Shown one piece after another: positions 10,806 to 64,000 of a stretch of DNA of 64,000 nt (positions within the stretch are counted from its first letter, which is position 1; the number at the start of each line of letters is the position of its first letter). The notes under the pieces were generated by a model, which did no database searches, was not told where the DNA came from, and saw only the letters and a program-made list of their open reading frames with translations. A program made the translations under genes and the position numbers. Source of the stretch: a virus; the IMG/VR virus record IMGVR_UViG_3300037851_000431, positions 32,001 to 96,000 of that record, one strand, 5' to 3'.

Positions 10806-11810
10806 ATGAAGGAGCTTACTAAAGAGCAGAGATTAGCCCTTGCAGAATTGGCTAAAACAGATAGACGAGCATTTGCTGAAGTTATTACTGAGTATGTTGA
10901 TCCAGTGTTTCTAACACTAGATATCGCAGGAGCATTTATGGGTACTCGGGAAATGAAATTCGGTGATATACTTGTTAAAAGATTTAAGGGTAAGTACCAT
11001 GTCCAGCAGATCGTACCCGGTCAGATCACATTAGGTGAACAGATCGTTGTACGAGACAAGGCAATGAGTATTAACCTTGATATCCTTTCTGCAAAGGCAG
11101 CTTATAATACACTAGAATTAGAACATGGTGGACCAGCATTTAGACCAGAAGTAGTACGAAGTGATGTTCGAAAGGCATTAGAAGAAAGAATTCTTATGCG
11201 CACATGGAATGCACTAGGAAATATCTGGACAGCAGGAAATGCATCCGCATTGACTTTAACAGGTTCAGCATCTTCGAATTTCATTGATGCCTCAGGCGCA
11301 CTTACGGAATCAGTACTTGATACCGCAATTGACCATACAAATTTCTGGTCAGGAAGCGTAAAGGCAATCATTGGAACAGAACAGGCACTAGCGCCACTTT
11401 CTACATTTGGACAGTATAAGCTAGTACAGCAGACATTAACAGGCCCAGCATATACTGGACACCTTCTAAAGAAAGAGGGGCAGGAAGGTATGTGGGATAA
11501 CCGTTCTCCATATGGAGATGGCCCAAAGCCTGTTGAATCATATCGAGGCGTAAATAATATCATTAGAATCAAGCAGATTTTTGATGAGACAGAATATCCT
11601 CCAAAGCCACTTCTACCGACAGACTTTGTGCTGGTAGTGGGAGATAACATCGGAGAATTCATTACTTACGGTGGACCTCAGACCAAGGAATTTATTGATA
11701 ACGAGCCAACTCCTCCATACTGGAACTTCGAAGTTTGGGTACAGTTTGGTATGATGATCTGGAATGCCCGTGGGCTAACCAAGATCAAGGTTACATCAAC
11801 AACACCATAA
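10806..11810 (+). CDS. Major capsid protein
   Basis: 334 aa, position, strong AAGGAGG SD, followed by terminator; HK97-like C-terminal pattern. Confidence 0.8.
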   Translation: MKELTKEQRLALAELAKTDRRAFAEVITEYVDPVFLTLDIAGAFMGTREMKFGDILVKRFKGKYHVQQIVPGQITLGEQIVVRDKAMSINLDILSAKAAYNTLELEHGGPAFRPEVVRSDVRKALEERILMRTWNALGNIWTAGNASALTLTGSASSNFIDASGALTESVLDTAIDHTNFWSGSVKAIIGTEQALAPLSTFGQYKLVQQTLTGPAYTGHLLKKEGQEGMWDNRSPYGDGPKPVESYRGVNNIIRIKQIFDETEYPPKPLLPTDFVLVVGDNIGEFITYGGPQTKEFIDNEPTPPYWNFEVWVQFGMMIWNARGLTKIKVTSTTP

Positions 11811-11851
11811 TATTCGCCCATAGGTAACTATGGTTGAGTGTTAGTAATAAG

Positions 11852-11897
11852 GGGCCATCGGTCATATCACAATGGCCGGTGGCCCACTTATTTTATT
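11852..11897 (+). terminator. Intrinsic terminator after capsid gene
   Basis: GGGCCATCGGTCAT/ATGGCCGGTGGCCC stem then TTATTTTATT. Confidence 0.7.
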
Positions 11898-11924
11898 AGG
11901 AAAAGGAACAGGAGGATTATTACA

Positions 11925-16642: not shown

Positions 16643-17830
16643 ATGGCAAAGAGAGTTAGGGTTCACTCAAGAGATTTGCAGCCGCAAATCGTAGCACCCC
16701 GAGGAATGTTCGCTGCTGCTAGAGTTCAGAGATTTGATTGGCCTACGTCATTACCAACAACAGCAATTGATGAAATTGGACGAAAGCTACATGTGGGAAC
16801 AACGACAGAAATTCCCGAAGTTACTGTTACAATAGAAGCATTTAATGTTAATCATAACATTGATGCCTATATGACAGGATATACACCGGGAACATTTCCA
16901 ACCGTTTCGGGTGTTTCCATTACAGACCTTAAGGGAATTGATGTTGTAGGTCAAATTAGAGATGCTACAACAGCAGCTATAGTAAATGCACTTTATGTTA
17001 AGAGAGGTATCGTTTCAGGAATGGACGCCACGTTTGGTGTGCGAGATAACTCTTCAGTAACATATACAATTACAGCCTCATCTAAAAAGGAATTTAAAAA
17101 TCCTGTATTTAGTGACGGTTTCACTGTCTCAGGCGCACAGACAAATCTTTATTTAACATACACACCAACATATCTACCACTTACTTCAGGTTATATAATT
17201 AATGCTGGTAGAGTTACGGCAGCAGGAGCGCAAACATACCTCGATGAAGGAACAGACTATACTGTAACAGGTACGAATGTTCAACTATTAGCTGATGGTA
17301 CTACAGGAGATTATGTTTGGTTTACGTATTGTTCCGCACAATCTGCTACATTCCAGCCATTGGATGATGTATCAGCAGCAGCAATTCAGGGTAAATATGT
17401 TCCAGTGGCTATTTCAGTTAACAATATCCCAAGAGCGCAGAGTGCTTCAATTCGGGCTTCAATGGAAGTTGAAAGAATCTTCGAATTGGGTGGATTAGGA
17501 AAGCCCGTAGGAACAGAAATTGGTATTCCAAGTGTTACAGGTGATCTTAGTGTACTAAAGACTGATAACGAGTTACTTAATATTCTAACAGGACAGTCCT
17601 CAACAGCAGATGAAGCTGACTTGGAGTATCAGGCTAACAATCTATCGTTAAAGATTCAGTTGAAAGACCCGGCGAATCCAACAAAAGTTGTTAAAACATA
17701 TTATGTACCATCAATTACGATCACACAAGAAAATGATGAATCAACTGTTAACCAGTCAATGAATGAGACATTCTCATGGGAATCAAAGACCGGAGAATTG
17801 TTCATTGCGTCTGGTGCTGGTCCTTGGTAA
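16643..17830 (+). CDS. Major tail (tube) protein
   Basis: Thr/Val/Ser-rich, strong TAAGGAGG SD, followed by terminator, chaperones and tape measure. Confidence 0.8.
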   Translation: MAKRVRVHSRDLQPQIVAPRGMFAAARVQRFDWPTSLPTTAIDEIGRKLHVGTTTEIPEVTVTIEAFNVNHNIDAYMTGYTPGTFPTVSGVSITDLKGIDVVGQIRDATTAAIVNALYVKRGIVSGMDATFGVRDNSSVTYTITASSKKEFKNPVFSDGFTVSGAQTNLYLTYTPTYLPLTSGYIINAGRVTAAGAQTYLDEGTDYTVTGTNVQLLADGTTGDYVWFTYCSAQSATFQPLDDVSAAAIQGKYVPVAISVNNIPRAQSASIRASMEVERIFELGGLGKPVGTEIGIPSVTGDLSVLKTDNELLNILTGQSSTADEADLEYQANNLSLKIQLKDPANPTKVVKTYYVPSITITQENDESTVNQSMNETFSWESKTGELFIASGAGPW

Positions 17831-17887
17831 ATCATTTAACTGATAATACAATATCGGGTATTTATAAGAATTAACTTATAAAACACA

Positions 17888-17932
17888 GGGATTAAGCTCG
17901 TCAAATCGGCGGGCTTAATCCCTTTTATTTTT
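17888..17932 (+). terminator. Intrinsic terminator after major tail gene
   Basis: GGGATTAAGCTCGTC/GGCGGGCTTAATCCC stem then TTTTATTTTT. Confidence 0.9.
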
Positions 17933-17948
17933 ATTAGGAGGAAAGGTA

Positions 17949-18686
17949 ATGGGCAAGTTAGCAAGTCTTCTTCGATGGAAGAGGAAGGTAGAGTTAAAGG
18001 ACGAACACAATAATCCTATATTAGATGAAAATGGTAGTCCTGTTATAGTATGGGTAAGGCTTCTTGGTGATTTTGATCTACAGGAAGCTTATAAAAGATC
18101 AAGAGTAGAGTCCAGTAAAATGCGAGAGTTACTTAGAACGCCTGAATCACCTGAATATAAGGATCAGGTTGAACCTCTTTTTGAAGCAGATGAGGAACAA
18201 TGCAAGGAAATTATACGTGCAGCCAAGGGTGCTAACTGGACAGCAGATGCGTACTCCGTGGTTGAAAGACCCAATCTAATTGAAATGAGTGAGATAGCAA
18301 TTGATCCTGATGCTCCAACACTTGAAGAACAAGAAAAATTAGATAAACAAAATGAAGAGTTAGATGTTAAATATAAAAAAGATGTTGAAGATTATATAGA
18401 TACAAAATCGAAAGAGTTGGAAGCAGAATTAAGTGTATTAAACTTGGAAGAATTAAGAGAAAAAGCTAAATTTGAAGTTTCAAATGTTATGCCGCTCTCA
18501 ACTTTTGTAGTATCTTTAAATGATGAAAAAGTTTGGCGTTCAGTATATGTAGATGAGGGTTGTAAAGAAAGGGGTTTTTCAAATATTGGGGAATTTAGAG
18601 AAGCCTCTCCCATTATTAGAGAGCAACTTATTAAAGCATATATAAATTTGGAAAGCGGTGTTAGTGTAGAAGAATTAAAAAACTAG
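17949..18686 (+). CDS. Tail assembly chaperone (gpG-like)
   Basis: Acidic protein between tail tube and tape measure ending in slippery A AAA AAC TAG. Confidence 0.8.
   Translation: MGKLASLLRWKRKVELKDEHNNPILDENGSPVIVWVRLLGDFDLQEAYKRSRVESSKMRELLRTPESPEYKDQVEPLFEADEEQCKEIIRAAKGANWTADAYSVVERPNLIEMSEIAIDPDAPTLEEQEKLDKQNEELDVKYKKDVEDYIDTKSKELEAELSVLNLEELREKAKFEVSNVMPLSTFVVSLNDEKVWRSVYVDEGCKERGFSNIGEFREASPIIREQLIKAYINLESGVSVEELKN
18677..18683 (+). promoter_or_regulatory. -1 programmed ribosomal frameshift site
   Basis: X XXY YYZ heptamer AAAAAAC; -1 frame is open and continuous with 18707..18976. Confidence 0.85.
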
Positions 18687-43127: not shown

Positions 43128-43453
43128 TGGTTGATCCAAATCTTTTTAATGACATAGAAAAGTTTCTTAAGTCAGGTGACTTCCCTTGGCCAACCGATCC
43201 TCTAGTATCGGAGGATGAGTGGAAGACACTTATTCTTTCTGCTAATGATTATAATGGTGGCCCAATATTTGCTGATCAGGCAGAAGGTCTACTCCGATGG
43301 GCAGAAAACATAAGGGTAGGATCAGTATTGCTTGATCTGGTTCTTAATGGGCTAGTAAATATTGTCCCCAATGATGAGGATTCAATGAATCCATCATTCA
43401 TAATTTCTGAACACGGTAAAAAGGTATTTGATGCAGGAACCCAAATCTCTTGA
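43127..43453 (+). CDS. Hypothetical protein
   Basis: Coupled ORF. Confidence 0.6.
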   Translation: MVDPNLFNDIEKFLKSGDFPWPTDPLVSEDEWKTLILSANDYNGGPIFADQAEGLLRWAENIRVGSVLLDLVLNGLVNIVPNDEDSMNPSFIISEHGKKVFDAGTQIS

Positions 43454-52399: not shown

Positions 52400-52402
52400 G
52401 GC

Positions 52403-52444
52403 AAAAAAATATCCCCGGTCCCATTCAGGACCGGGGATATTTTT
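52403..52444. terminator. Bidirectional intrinsic terminator between convergent arms
   Basis: AAAAATATCCCCGGTCC/GGACCGGGGATATTTTT perfect stem. Confidence 0.92.
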
Positions 52445-52718
52445 AGTTTTGTATCGATGTTTCGTGGCGATGTTCCAAGAAGGTTTGATAAAATTTGAGT
52501 ATGCCTGTAAAGATATACTCAAAACAATCCTCATGAAATGATAGTAAGAATCCTTCGGTTCTAATCTGCATTTTCACATATTTAGAACCGTCAGTTACAT
52601 CAATATCTTCCCCACAAGCATCGCAAATTCCCGAACGATGGGTGGGATTAATATCTACATGCTTTAGAATAAACCCGTGTCCAAGACGAGTGGGTTCATT
52701 AAGCATTAGCAATCTCAA
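52443..52718 (-). CDS. Small Zn-finger protein
   Basis: CDACG...HEDC. Confidence 0.6.
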   Translation of the reverse strand: MRLLMLNEPTRLGHGFILKHVDINPTHRSGICDACGEDIDVTDGSKYVKMQIRTEGFLLSFHEDCFEYIFTGILKFYQTFLEHRHETSIQN

Positions 52719-59573: not shown

Positions 59574-59642
59574 CGAAAAGTAGTTTCCTTTCTTTCACTA
59601 CCCGGTCCCGGTTCCATCTTCACTTGTTAAGGTTCGTAGCCT

Positions 59643-59671
59643 AGTCTAGCACCAAAACGAACCAATGTCAA
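59643..59671 (-). promoter_or_regulatory. Early promoter L1
   Basis: TTGACA-17 nt-TAGACT with TGc extension. Confidence 0.85.
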
Positions 59672-59766
59672 GCGTCTACAAAAAATTGTGGCCTACTATT
59701 TTGAAGCCATCTTTTATATTAGACTTGCTAGGTTCGTCGCGGCTCGTCAACCGGCCCGTCTAGGGT

Positions 59767-59795
59767 ACTCTAGCACACAACCCGAGCCGTGTCAA
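59767..59795 (-). promoter_or_regulatory. Early promoter L2
   Basis: TTGACA-17 nt-TAGAGT with TGc extension and upstream A/T tracts. Confidence 0.85.
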
Positions 59796-60108
59796 GCCCT
59801 AAGAATAAAAAACTTTTTTATGTAGATCACTTTTGTACTTCTTTGTTCCGTACTTTGTTGATCGAATTTCATCCGGTGGCCTGTTACTCACCGAAATTCT
59901 GGATTTTAGAACCTAAAATAAATCCAATTTCATGCTCCCATAAAGAGGAATTTTAGCCACCCATTTACAGGGATTTTGGAGCCGAAAACCTAGGATGCGT
60001 GCCCCATATAAGCTGCACGCGCGAGCAGCTATATCACGCGCGAGGGGTTTTTTCGTACCGAATTTTGGGTTCCTTTAGAGCGTTTTCAAAAAAACCCCTT
60101 TTTGGGGC

Positions 60109-60137
60109 TTGACAGGGTGTGCCCGGTGTGCTATGCT
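60109..60137 (+). promoter_or_regulatory. Early promoter R1
   Basis: TTGACA-17 nt-TATGCT with TGc extension and upstream A/T tracts. Confidence 0.85.
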
Positions 60138-60199
60138 CTTAGCAGAGGTTAGTTGAACATATAAATCACAATCCGTATAGATGAAAGGTAAGTGAATAT

Positions 60200-60864: not shown

Positions 60865-60937
60865 TGGGGTAGCCATCGTGGTATTACTTATCACGATGGT
60901 TGCCCTAAAGTTTATCTCAGGGCAATGGAGTTTCTAA

Positions 60938-61330
60938 ATGCCGAAGATTGTAGTGGATAGAATTTGGATTGGCACAGATCAAGATGATGAGGATGATCCT
61001 GCCAATTGGAAAGAATTATCTATTCCGGCAAAGTATGAAGTTTGTCCTGATTGTGAAGGTGAGGGTACATCAAGTGCCTATCTTGGAGCCTTTACTTGGG
61101 ATCAAATCGATGAATTAGGAGATGACTTTAGGGAAGACTATTTTGCTGGTCGATATGATAGGTTGTGCGAAACCTGTAAAGGGGAGCGAGTAGTCCCTAT
61201 CCCCGATAGAGAAAATGCCGATCCTGAAATTCTCAAAATGTATGATGAAATTCAGGATGAGGAGAGACAAAGCGAACAAATGCATCGAATGGAGATGCAA
61301 GCCGAATACGGCCCCGATTATATGTGGTAA
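60938..61330 (+). CDS. Acidic protein with DnaJ-like CxxCxGxG motifs
   Basis: VCPDCEGEG...CETCKGER. Confidence 0.7.
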   Translation: MPKIVVDRIWIGTDQDDEDDPANWKELSIPAKYEVCPDCEGEGTSSAYLGAFTWDQIDELGDDFREDYFAGRYDRLCETCKGERVVPIPDRENADPEILKMYDEIQDEERQSEQMHRMEMQAEYGPDYMW

Positions 61331-61336
61331 GGAAAA

Positions 61337-61582
61337 ATGACACAGGGAATTTTTATCAACTACCGAAGGCCCAAGTCAAAGAAGGAGGTCATTGAAGCAG
61401 TCAAGACTAATCCTGAAAGTGTTAGTCTTGAAGCAACATCATTCTTTGGCAATGAGTATGACGGTCCAATCACAGAAATGCCTGAGAATAAGATGGTGTT
61501 TGTGGTTGGTCCCGATCCTGCTACTAAGCGTAATTTCTATCTCAATGTAACCCGTGTGGGTAACAAGTTTACTGTAAAGTAA
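61337..61582 (+). CDS. Small hypothetical protein
   Basis: TAAGGA SD; KSKK...TSFFG-x-EY...VVGP motif. Confidence 0.7.
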   Translation: MTQGIFINYRRPKSKKEVIEAVKTNPESVSLEATSFFGNEYDGPITEMPENKMVFVVGPDPATKRNFYLNVTRVGNKFTVK

Positions 61583-61596
61583 AGAAAGGTTGGGAA

Positions 61597-61989
61597 ATGG
61601 AAGCCGAAAAGCCTGAGTGCCGTCACTACTCAATCAAGGATGAGGAAGGTGTTTCGTATTGCCGCGATTGCCTTCTTATCCATATCCCCGAAAAGTTTTG
61701 GTACGGCGAAATCAAGATCGGTCAGCTTTCGAATAGGTTCGAACATACTACGGTCGATTTCGATTTCAAAGACCTGATCGAATTGCAGCTTGGTACATCC
61801 GTTGAGTTGACGAATATTATCAAGACTGAAAAGTCTGATCGCTATTGGGCACAGTCTTATATCGTTTGGTATAAGATTGGACGATCAGAAATGTCTGCTA
61901 GTGTTGACGATCTAACCCGTGGTACTCGATATAACCCGACTAACAGGTTCTACGAGCCTAAGTTGGAAGTGGTCGAGGAAACCACCTAA
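61597..61989 (+). CDS. Hypothetical protein
   Basis: ORF with SD; N-terminal C-x-H...C-x2-C. Confidence 0.6.
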   Translation: MEAEKPECRHYSIKDEEGVSYCRDCLLIHIPEKFWYGEIKIGQLSNRFEHTTVDFDFKDLIELQLGTSVELTNIIKTEKSDRYWAQSYIVWYKIGRSEMSASVDDLTRGTRYNPTNRFYEPKLEVVEETT

Positions 61990-62044
61990 ATTTGGGGGAG
62001 CCGCGATCTTACAGTAAAGGAGGTGAAAAGCAATCTATATTGTA

Positions 62045-62167
62045 ATGAAATGCGGCTCCTGTCCTGAAAAGCAGTATTTCGGTAAACTTGTCGAAAAGGG
62101 CAAGGAAAATACTGCTAAGTGCCCTAACTGCGGGCACAAACTTATCGTCGTGGCAAACGATAAGTAA
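62045..62167 (+). CDS. 40-aa Zn-ribbon microprotein (absent from ORF track; alternative in-frame ATC start 62033)
   Basis: MKCGSCPEKQYFGKLVEKGKENTAKCPNCGHKLIVVANDK; AAAGGAGGTGA SD at 62016-62026. Confidence 0.75.
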   Translation: MKCGSCPEKQYFGKLVEKGKENTAKCPNCGHKLIVVANDK

Positions 62168-62169
62168 CT

Positions 62170-62794
62170 ACATAATGGCGAAGGTTAGGTTGGCTAGACC
62201 TAATCTATTCGATGCCCCGAGAATTATGCCTGTGACGACAGGCTTTGGGGATAGCCCATCGAATAGGAAGCCGAAAACTGAGCCTTAGGCTTAGGGTTTC
62301 GGGCCAGATTTATTAGGCTAGGATACGAGAAAGTACGATCTGGTGCAAGTATCGTCGTATAAATGCCTAGCGAGTCGGTCAATGCGTAAACCGACATTAT
62401 TAATAAATTATGTGTTGAGTAGAGAACAACACGAAGCAGTACTATAAGGCTCTGATCGATCCATCCTTATACCTGTGGATATGGCCTACCGGACACATAA
62501 TTTAGAGTACGCTACTGGTAGAATTACTGGTCATGAACAGAGAAGAGCCAGTCTCAATGCGTATACTGTGGATTATGAAGTGATATCCATATTAAAGTCT
62601 AAGAGTACGATAGGTTCCTTTGGCGTAGTCAATAGATAGGGTAGCGAGCTGCAAATCGTCCTATCGAAAAGAACCTCACAATGCGTACACTGCCCGATCA
62701 ATTATGTGATATCGGGCATCCGAATTATAAAGGCTTCCAGCGGGCAGTATTATATTTTATTTTAATCCAAACACTGCCCGCTAGAGTCCTTTAT
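62170..62794 (+). ncRNA. Candidate large structured ncRNA / leader with repeated CAATGCGTA motif
   Basis: No credible ORF over ~630 nt; more than ten back-to-back stems; motif at 62380, 62555, 62679. Confidence 0.6.
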
Positions 62795-62805
62795 TAGAGG
62801 TTAGT

Positions 62806-63156
62806 ATGTACCGACGAATTCAACTAATTAATCACTACGATCCTAAGAAACATGAACACGAACAAAACGACTTCATCCATGGGTTGATGGGTATTTGTAA
62901 TAGTGTTGAGATTGCAGATGCGTGGACCTATAAATTGCGCGGTTCAAATCACGCTCTACCCACCAATGCACGATTTTATTTTACAGAGAAGGGTTGGAAG
63001 GAAGTTGGACGAGAAGTAATTGCCGCTTGTCAGCGATCAGGTCAAGACTATAGAGTTATTAAAGTCAAAGAGACTGACGCGCAAGTTGTTTGGCGAGATA
63101 AGTATACTGAATATGAAGTTGCTATCCAGCCTAAAAGAAAGGTAAGTAAGAAGTAG
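62806..63156 (+). CDS. Hypothetical protein
   Basis: GAGGT SD; RFYFTEKGW motif. Confidence 0.7.
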   Translation: MYRRIQLINHYDPKKHEHEQNDFIHGLMGICNSVEIADAWTYKLRGSNHALPTNARFYFTEKGWKEVGREVIAACQRSGQDYRVIKVKETDAQVVWRDKYTEYEVAIQPKRKVSKK

Positions 63157-63456
63157 ATGAAGCGCGGAATTCCCGTCACATTTTCTACTTGCCGCAAAGA
63201 GCATGGCAAGTGTGATATTTGCTTGCAACCCATCAAACCCGGTGAAAAGTATATTCGGGTTGTTATTCCCCCGTGGGAAAGTGAGATAGAATTCGTATTC
63301 AACGATTTTGGGCAAATTATTAATTCTTGGTACATTAACTCCCACAAATGGGAAGTCCATGAAACTCACGAAAAGTGCGAGAAATGGCGCGCAGAAGAGA
63401 TGCGCGAAGCCGAGATGGATTTGGAGTGGGAAACTCCCTTGGAGTATGATTACTAA
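63157..63456 (+). CDS. Zn-finger protein
   Basis: RKEH-x2-CDIC-x2-PIKPGEKY...HEKC. Confidence 0.7.
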   Translation: MKRGIPVTFSTCRKEHGKCDICLQPIKPGEKYIRVVIPPWESEIEFVFNDFGQIINSWYINSHKWEVHETHEKCEKWRAEEMREAEMDLEWETPLEYDY

Positions 63457-63791
63457 TGTCTAGGCATCTTTTTGCTCCGGGTGAAACAGTTTCTTATTGT
63501 GGTGTGGCAACAATCGAGTCCAATGCTAGGTGGAAGAATAGCGAAATCATTTGCTATTCTTGTGCTAATAGGCGTCTGGATAAAACGCTATACTCCACAA
63601 GAAGGTTAATCAAGACATTTTACTGGCAGAGTAACCGACAGTGGGGACTGCAAACTAAACTTGCAAAACTGTTTGGTATCTCGCGCCAGCGGGTTCACCA
63701 AATTGTCTATGATCCTGATATTAAAGTCTTTGACGTGGAGATTTCGCTTGTTGAACTGAAAGAAGCGAAAGAAAAGGAATGGAAGACATAA
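63456..63791 (+). CDS. Protein with C-terminal HTH
   Basis: QTKLAKLFGISRQRVHQIV. Confidence 0.7.
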   Translation: MSRHLFAPGETVSYCGVATIESNARWKNSEIICYSCANRRLDKTLYSTRRLIKTFYWQSNRQWGLQTKLAKLFGISRQRVHQIVYDPDIKVFDVEISLVELKEAKEKEWKT

Positions 63792-63877
63792 TGTTAGTAG
63801 AAATGACAGGTGTTATTTGGGTAATTACTTTAGTAGTTTTTGCCTTTACTATGATTTGGATGGAACTTCATAGATGA
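63791..63877 (+). CDS. 28-aa membrane peptide (absent from ORF track)
   Basis: MLVEMTGVIWVITLVVFAFTMIWMELHR; TAATG/ATGA coupling. Confidence 0.55.
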   Translation: MLVEMTGVIWVITLVVFAFTMIWMELHR

Positions 63878-64000
63878 ATACCCCTTATATTGGTTTTGGT
63901 AATGATACGTTAAATAAACTGCCCGAAGTAAAGATTGGGGATTCTTTTCAATGTCCAGATTGTAACCAAATTCATTGGCTACGGGGCGATGATAATGGCG
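63874..64000 (+). CDS. Partial ORF running off the window
   Basis: MNTPYIGFGND...CPDC-x3-H, open to window end. Confidence 0.55.
   Translation, partial: MNTPYIGFGNDTLNKLPEVKIGDSFQCPDCNQIHWLRGDDNG

Follow-up and report, generated by a model that had tools for sequence, protein, structure and literature searches.

What is encoded by 638 nt of gene-free DNA lying between two co-oriented genes of an uncultured phage? The stretch, referred to below as the island, falls within a window of 64,000 nt (bases 32001-96000 of an IMG/VR virus record that is 105.7 kb long and, by estimate, 88% complete; "the window" always means these 64,000 nt). It forms the core of the longest ORF-poor segment of that window (61990-62805, 816 nt without an ORF of at least 70 aa), and the initial annotation, which had singled it out as the longest non-coding stretch, was right in this respect. 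The phage carries 26 tRNA genes in several clusters, the nearest of them 2.6 kb from the island. Its large terminase is 22% identical to the best match among GenBank phages, a comparison that yielded no cultured relative of the lineage, and no GenBank phage has a DNA match to the stretch.

The island sits among small rightward genes (Table 1). Promoter-like sites are predicted at about 60.1 and 60.8 kb and none within the island, and no terminator is predicted before it. Further upstream, a 626-nt gap at 59574-60199 has divergent genes on either side and near-consensus promoter-like sites pointing both ways (TTGACA-17-TATGCT on the + strand; TTGACA-17-TAGAGT and TTGACA-17-TAGACT on the - strand). 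This gap is likely to be the early control region, and it is a better candidate for an origin than the RNA island.

Table 1. Position of the island, its modules and helices, and the adjacent genes in the window.
Feature	Position	Strand	Remarks
81-aa gene	61337-61582	+	rightward block of small genes
130-aa gene	61597-61989	+	rightward block of small genes
Zn-ribbon ORF, 40 aa, CxxC...CxxC	62045..62167	+	directly 5' of the RNA stretch
Gene-free RNA stretch, 638 nt	62168-62805	+	between Zn-ribbon ORF and 116-aa gene
Module A, four-way-junction cloverleaf	62176..62306	+	covariance model, covariation
A, P1	62176-79/62303-06	+	terminal stem
A, P2	about 62183-90/62198-205	+	in covariance model CM R1; covariation
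A, P3	62205-14/62257-66	+	variable tip hairpin 62228-33/62238-43
A, P4	62271-76/62297-302	+	pairing kept across four copies
Module B	62308..62408	+	outer AU stem 62308-15/62401-08; folds alone
B, inner domain	GCTAGG 62317-22 / CCTAGC 62366-71	+	within the outer AU stem
B, hairpin	GTCGGT 62374-79 / ACCGAC 62390-95	+	loop CAATGCGTAA
Module C, long hairpin	62405..62503	+	perfect 11-bp base AAATTATGTGT/ACACATAATTT
Module E1	62504..62591	+	closing stem AGAGTACG 62504-11 / CGTATACT 62560-67
Module E2, paralogue of E1	62602..62718	+	closing stem 62602-09 / 62684-91
Module F, terminal hairpin	62727..62794	+	25-nt arms, 84% complementary; AU-rich loop of 18-24 nt
116-aa gene	62806-63156	+	own SD and ATG, directly 3' of module F

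All of the stems and motifs that the initial annotation had listed were recovered at the same positions. The stretch as a whole is more stable than its dinucleotide shuffles on either strand (z -4.2 on + and -5.2 on -, 20 shuffles per strand). Folding was also compared with the window background, by GC-corrected MFE from a regression over 639 windows of 200 nt. Exceptional values came only from 62101-62400 in the 5' part (ranks 2 and 5) and from 62601-62800 at the 3' end (rank 12); the middle, 62301-62700 (ranks 137-287), was no more stable than the background. This qualifies the description of the island as almost fully tiled by stems. Elsewhere in the window, the segments 11701-11900, 43201-43400, 52401-52600 and 17801-18000 match module A in GC-corrected folding energy (z -3.1 to -3.5). 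The nonamer CAATGCGTA, reported as thrice repeated, does start at 62380, 62555 and 62679 on the + strand; there are four copies in the window where 0.28 are expected, and none of 100 shuffles had four. The two module starts marked by AGAGTACG were likewise verified at 62504 and 62602. A search of 61000-64000 against Rfam returned nothing at E values up to 10 except for chance miRNA-type hairpin matches on module F, and GOLLD was not found at its gathering score anywhere in the window.

Relatives were reached through the terminase: among terminase relatives in IMG/VR, two phages with TerL 65-69% identical carry homologous modules. One, G004, is a 117-kb contig with DNA matches to several pieces of the stretch, and the other, G002, is a complete 120-kb genome in which the locus was located by synteny via the 81-aa gene. 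A further complete relative, G003, has the 81-aa gene and tightly packed genes, and does not contain the element. With a covariance model of helices P2 and P3 of module A (CM R1), the copy here reaches 112 bits, the two copies in G004 reach 99.6 and 33.3 bits (E 5e-7), and the G002 copy reaches 83 bits; there was no other hit, apart from the weak one given below, in these genomes, in ten further related viral records or in 156 bacterial genomes (5 MAGs and 151 Chloroflexota), which were sampled solely for homologues of a neighbouring gene. Within the window, there is also a weak CM R1 hit at 60937-61020 (16.8 bits, E 0.02), at the start of a 130-aa gene, which includes AATGCCGAAG-TT as in the 5' frame of module A and is probably due to chance.

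Motif scans added no further members. The pattern AGAGTACG-N40-70-CAATGCGTA gave 70 matches in IMG/VR, none of them homologous to the region, and missed G004 because the gap there is 81 nt; a scan with CTCACAATGCGTAYACTG returned G004 and one chance match (L195) in GC-rich coding DNA. Only G004 and G002 were real among the 46 matches to the 5' frame of module A, and a marginal match to the same frame, L208, has no covariance model score. As it stands, the family consists of three contigs with four copies of module A, borne by uncultured phages of 105-120 kb with 26-29 tRNAs each.

Module A is the core unit of the island. Across its four copies from three genomes, which are too few for a proper phylogenetic test, 97% of the cells in P2 and P3 are paired and 7 of the 17 pairs show double compensatory changes. 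None of 500 shuffles reached the observed values, and pairing fell to 26-44% when the partner strand was shifted by 1-3 columns. Pairing is also retained in every variant of P1 (TGGC/GCCA, CTGGTC/GGCCAG and CTCTTGCC/GGCAAGAG) and of P4 (CCGAAA/TTTCGG, CTAGAG/CTCTAG, TTAGAG/CTCTAG and CTATC/GATAG). The purine-rich junction nucleotides CGAAGG and GAAG are invariant in all four copies, and the tips of P3 and P4 tolerate large insertions. RNAalifold agrees with these helices, and folding alone produced the same junction for three of the four copies. Four cells are wobbles, all of them G-U or U-G and valid on the + strand only, with no A-C cell, which indicates rightward reading of the RNA, in the same direction as the flanking genes. 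Over its first 42 nt, the module is identical in this phage and G004 (42/42), compared with 76-79% in adjacent genes. Since six-frame matches between the two phages fall in several frames and on both strands, and the frame across A contains a stop codon in G002, it is the nucleotide sequence that is conserved here and not a coding sequence.

The whole stretch can be divided into six abutting modules, each of which has its own closing stem and folds alone to the same shape. Module B has a homologue in G004 (L192 4832-4930, 88% identity over 41 nt), located 5' of the Zn-ribbon ORF, in which the outer stem is TAGAAT/ATTCTA, one G-C pair has become G-U and the loop is CAAGGTATAA. The thrice-repeated nonamer, which had been taken for the key motif, has thus not been kept as a motif of the loop; within the E modules it is mostly the 3' strand of the closing stem, to which the bulk of CAATGCGTAYACTG belongs. 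Module C is a candidate double-strand RNase site; in its place G004 has a non-homologous long hairpin with a perfect base of 15-16 bp (L192 5944-6098), directly 5' of E. Module F has no counterpart in G004 or G002.

Modules E1 and E2 have a frame in common and nothing more: in both, AGAGTACG pairs with CGTAYACT as the closing stem, and the module further comprises an inner stem, the joiner CNCA(C)AATG and a trailing hairpin. E1 has ACTGG/CCAGT as its inner stem and CTCAATG as its joiner, with the trailing hairpin placed at about 62567-62591; in E2 the parts are the inner stems AGGTTC/GAACCT and GATAGG/CCTATC, the joiner CACAATG and the trailing hairpin TGCCCGAT (62691-98) / ATCGGGCA (62711-18). 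Over 50 nt, E2 and the G004 E module are 86% identical, and the latter keeps both frames. The trailing hairpin displays a compensatory C-G to U-A change (TGCCCGAT/ATCGGGCA here, TGCTCGAT/ATCGAGCA in G004), the E1 stem being different again, and the inner stem covaries as well (AGGTTC/GAACCT, AGGGA/TCCCT and ACTGG/CCAGT). The closing stem is invariant apart from one G-C/G-U change and so offers no proof by covariation. We also note that, in each of the three E modules, a mini-ORF with MR(I/T)L as its first residues starts from the ATG within CAATGCGTA (62557-62583, 62681-62797 and L192 6190-6216).

Between the three phages, modules have been gained and lost, duplicated, and moved to other positions. 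The G004 island extends over 1.1 kb and contains two full copies of A, both with T-loop-like sequences in the P3 tip and the second with a large insert in P4, together with extra B-like units. A second, structurally intact tRNA-Tyr(GTA) is embedded in it (L192 5855-5943, equivalent to G004:69854-69942), a paralogue that has diverged from the canonical tRNA-Tyr of the phage (G004:6643-6728). The two copies are alike in the acceptor stem, anticodon loop, T arm and encoded CCA; the island copy has an anticodon stem altered on both sides with its pairing intact and an enlarged D loop, was detected by ARAGORN at a relaxed threshold only, and scores 23 bits against the clan model. The same island has two CCGG-ATAA(T)GTAA-CCGG hairpins (L192 5407-5424 and 5496-5514), which look like the GTCGGT-loop-ACCGAC hairpin in module B and like an element of G002, GTCGGG-ATAAGCAATA-ACCC; such hairpins may represent a recurrent protein-binding hairpin.

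In G002, the locus consists of module A and a short tail only, about 0.3 kb in all. By eye, an extended -10 site (TTGCTT-17-TGC-TACAAT) can be seen 5' of A and a GTGACGG/CCGTCAC hairpin followed by a T-run 3' of it, neither of which was listed by the scanning tool. A long inverted repeat with arms of about 19 nt lies just 5' of A (L199 5818-5877), overlaps the promoter-like site and attracts spurious Rfam matches to miRNA precursors on both strands. The order A ... long hairpin ... E is common to this phage and G004, with A duplicated in G004 and E duplicated here, and the genes 3' of the island are unrelated in all three phages.

The neighbouring genes differ in how closely they are associated with the island. 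The 81-aa protein, which has no family match, is 65-79% identical at the amino acid level among phages with terminases that are 65-69% identical, and has 38 invariant residues. Its gene lies 0-0.9 kb 5' of the island in all three phages and is also found in eight viral contigs without the island. Tracing this gene family led to seven viral contigs beyond the relatives above, which contained neither module A nor any similarity to the other modules. The well-conserved 116-aa family has 56 homologues, found in unrelated phage contigs and in MAGs of Chloroflexota, Planctomycetota and Verrucomicrobiota, with neighbours that are not conserved. It is marked by invariant N..RFYFTEKGW and MYRR N-terminal motifs, has no Pfam domain, and behaves like a mobile moron gene. 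At 92 loci of the family, drawn from viral, metagenome and genome collections, there was no common synteny, RNA homology or long gap, and the family loci had no nucleotide or six-frame similarity to the RNA stretch.

The Zn-ribbon ORF had been put forward together with the RNA as the parts of one system. It has weak Zn-ribbon matches only in Pfam, is 67% identical (aa) to a homologue in G004 with an in-frame one-codon indel, and adjoins the island there too; no homologue is present in G002, although module A is. The proposed link is therefore weak: the ORF is a real gene, but the RNA does not require it as a partner.

On the strength of these comparisons, the stretch is a genuine structured non-coding RNA locus on the + strand, as its helices are under selection as RNA. 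Compensatory helices are found in module A, the outer stem of B, and the inner stem and trailing hairpin of E, and there is no conserved ORF. Part of what the initial annotation had proposed is thereby upheld: conserved frames with variable inserts in a structured RNA, membership of no known family (the Rfam check gave no match) and covariation, the helices being supported by two related phages. Short conserved ORFs, which it had named among the findings that would overturn its reading, were found neither in the relatives nor at 90 gene-family loci. Among the functions it offered, an array of small RNAs fits best, with processing the conjectural part of that proposal.

Of the RNAs described to date, GOLLD and ROOL come closest to the island in kind. 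GOLLD occurs in phages and prophages near tRNA islands and has one conserved and one variable half, sometimes with tRNAs in the linker; ROOL, also large and structured, likewise comes from phages and prophages and is frequently located near tRNAs; it has a fixed multi-junction architecture that includes three pseudoknots, and its partner and function are not known. Both RNAs are abundant and were recently shown to build RNA-only cages, with a function still lacking. The island resembles GOLLD in being phage-borne, several hundred nucleotides long, heavily folded and part of a tRNA-rich genome, and the tRNA that can lie within the variable part of GOLLD recalls the second tRNA-Tyr of G004, a feature of context and not of homology. 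However, the Rfam model for the conserved 3' domain of GOLLD matches none of the three loci, and the units here are autonomous and vary in number and position. Similarly, ROOL is like the island as a large structured phage RNA in a tRNA-rich context, but there is no Rfam match to it, and neither its global architecture nor a pseudoknot is seen in the island.

The tRNA regions of phages are also known to hold tRNA-like RNAs such as stable RNA species 1 and 2 of T4. Module A resembles tRNA in topology only. Its cloverleaf has junctions of 3/0/4-5/0, compared with 2/1/4-5/0 in tRNA, but its arms are far longer (7-9 bp in P2 and 10 bp or more in P3), it has neither an anticodon loop nor a 3' CCA, and the copy in this window is without a T arm. 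Module A is of the same type, and from the same data source, as the 8,495 candidate IMG/VR motifs of Fremin et al. (2023; PMC10690425), which are covarying, intergenic and from uncultured phages, and of which many resemble tRNAs. That pipeline required at least three distinct IMG/VR regions, a number that the module A family just reaches.

Because the modules are autonomous and vary in number, order and position, we regard the stretch as a chain of separate RNA units and not as one giant RNA. The account that we favour, with confidence slightly above even, is that six independent RNA modules are co-transcribed and processed to small RNAs that act in trans via the A junction. The island would lie in a rightward operon of small early-type genes and be transcribed with those that flank it. 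The long perfect hairpins C and F could then provide entry points for RNase III, and the tRNA-Tyr embedded in the G004 island one for RNase P/Z, and processing would release stable small RNAs. Once released, these may act in trans as a scaffold or a decoy, with a partner (protein or other) held at the A junction. The cloverleaf layout of A and the T-loop-like inserts of its G004 copies make a tRNA-handling factor a plausible partner. A bolder variant, which we consider improbable, takes module A to be the functional core of a new RNA class that has its own biochemical activity, either a tRNA-shaped decoy or a ligand-binding or catalytic core, and the other modules to be exchangeable accessories that would be released from the same transcript. 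In its decoy version, A would shield the tRNA investment of the phage from host tRNA-targeting defences.

Two other readings also assign a role to the RNA itself. It might be a single ornate RNA, 0.6-1.1 kb in size, that works as one molecule in the way of GOLLD or ROOL and perhaps self-assembles, which is a serious reading although on balance an unlikely one; the same can be said of the layout that it implies, with A as a conserved 5' domain, E and a hairpin as a conserved 3' domain, and a variable tRNA-holding linker between them. The order A ... long hairpin C ... E, as in G004, and the better conservation of the two ends speak for it, as do the conserved and variable halves, linker tRNAs and tRNA-island context of GOLLD and the similar context of ROOL. 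On the other hand, G002 keeps only A and a short tail, module B of G004 is on the opposite side of a protein gene, A is duplicated in one phage and E in another, and every module has a terminal stem that closes it and adopts its fold when taken alone. Conserved pairing between modules was looked for and none was found, and there was no GOLLD or ROOL match at E values up to 10 here and in G002 or up to 5 in G004. The variation in module number, order and position among the three phages equally speaks against the single RNA of ~630 nt, in the class of OLE, ROOL and GOLLD, that the initial annotation had considered. Distinctly improbable, in our view, is a cis-acting inter-cistronic spacer with no role in trans, whose hairpins would set the mRNA processing, stability and translation of the flanking genes. 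The unrelated downstream genes of the three phages argue against a gene-specific cis-regulator, 90 other loci at which the 116-aa gene family occurs have no such leader, a leader of 640-1100 nt would be very long, and stability alone hardly explains the perfect 42-nt conservation of a four-way junction. The arrangement of the locus does suit such a spacer: there are co-oriented genes on either side and no predicted promoter or terminator of its own, hairpin F stops immediately 5' of the SD belonging to the next gene, the two occurrences of ACTGCCCG would allow an alternative pairing with CGGGCAGT, and the G002 unit ends in a hairpin and T-run just before an SD and start codon.

The remaining readings place the function in DNA or in protein. 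A DNA-level element, whether a replication origin, an iteron or operator cluster, or a recombination cassette shuffling a hyperplastic early region, might account for the repeated short motifs (CAATGCGTA three times, AGAGTACG and ACACTGCCCG twice each), the many inverted repeats, the stability of both strands relative to shuffles and the variable gene content of the surroundings among relatives. We nonetheless judge it very improbable, as the G-U wobbles that are kept would turn into A-C mismatches if the other strand were read and into G-T mismatches at the level of DNA, stem sequences vary while pairing stays, and the relatives have not preserved the repeated motifs themselves. Even less credence can be given to missed small ORFs or a decayed gene, for example a mini-ORF starting from the ATG in CAATGCGTA, and it is hardly believable that its products (MRILWIMK and MRILLDKM in E1 and the G004 E module, respectively, and a 38-aa product in E2) are what the locus is for. 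ATG CGT AYA CTG does recur in the three E copies, and two of the frames run for 8 codons before they reach the TGA in the conserved GTGATATC; however, the ATGs have no clear SD 5' of them, and peptide conservation ends at MR(I/T)L, while the same bases are part of stems that covary. When the relatives and 90 neighbour-gene loci were compared in six frames, there was no protein-level match, and the frame across A is broken in G002.

Several established classes were considered and set aside. A group I/II intron was rejected as there is no Rfam match, the upstream ORF has its own stop and the downstream gene starts at its conserved MYRR. An antitoxin mimic had been among the initial suggestions, yet TRF detected no tandem repeat in the stretch, E1 and E2 are alike in their frames only, and there was no Rfam match of the ToxI type, which disposes of a ToxI-like antitoxin and of a CRISPR-like array. 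A riboswitch or gene-specific leader was rejected on the grounds of the unrelated downstream genes in the three phages and the 90 other 116-aa loci without the element. No tRNA or tmRNA was found in 61000-64000 with ARAGORN and the Rfam tRNA model, only the insert in G004 (L192 5855-5943) qualifying as a tRNA. A retron was likewise considered and rejected.

These results describe an RNA family that is unrelated to GOLLD and ROOL, as far as the missing Rfam match tells, in a tRNA-rich phage lineage of 105-120 kb. Its organisation is also unlike theirs, with autonomous modules that are swapped, duplicated and interspersed with tRNA genes. The present value of the island is that of a well-supported candidate rather than of a mechanism, and the family is rare (three contigs). 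Module A, at about 130 nt and strongly constrained, is a compact target for structure probing and binding assays. If such islands are general in phage genomes, they would perhaps constitute a common, unstudied layer of phage-host interaction.
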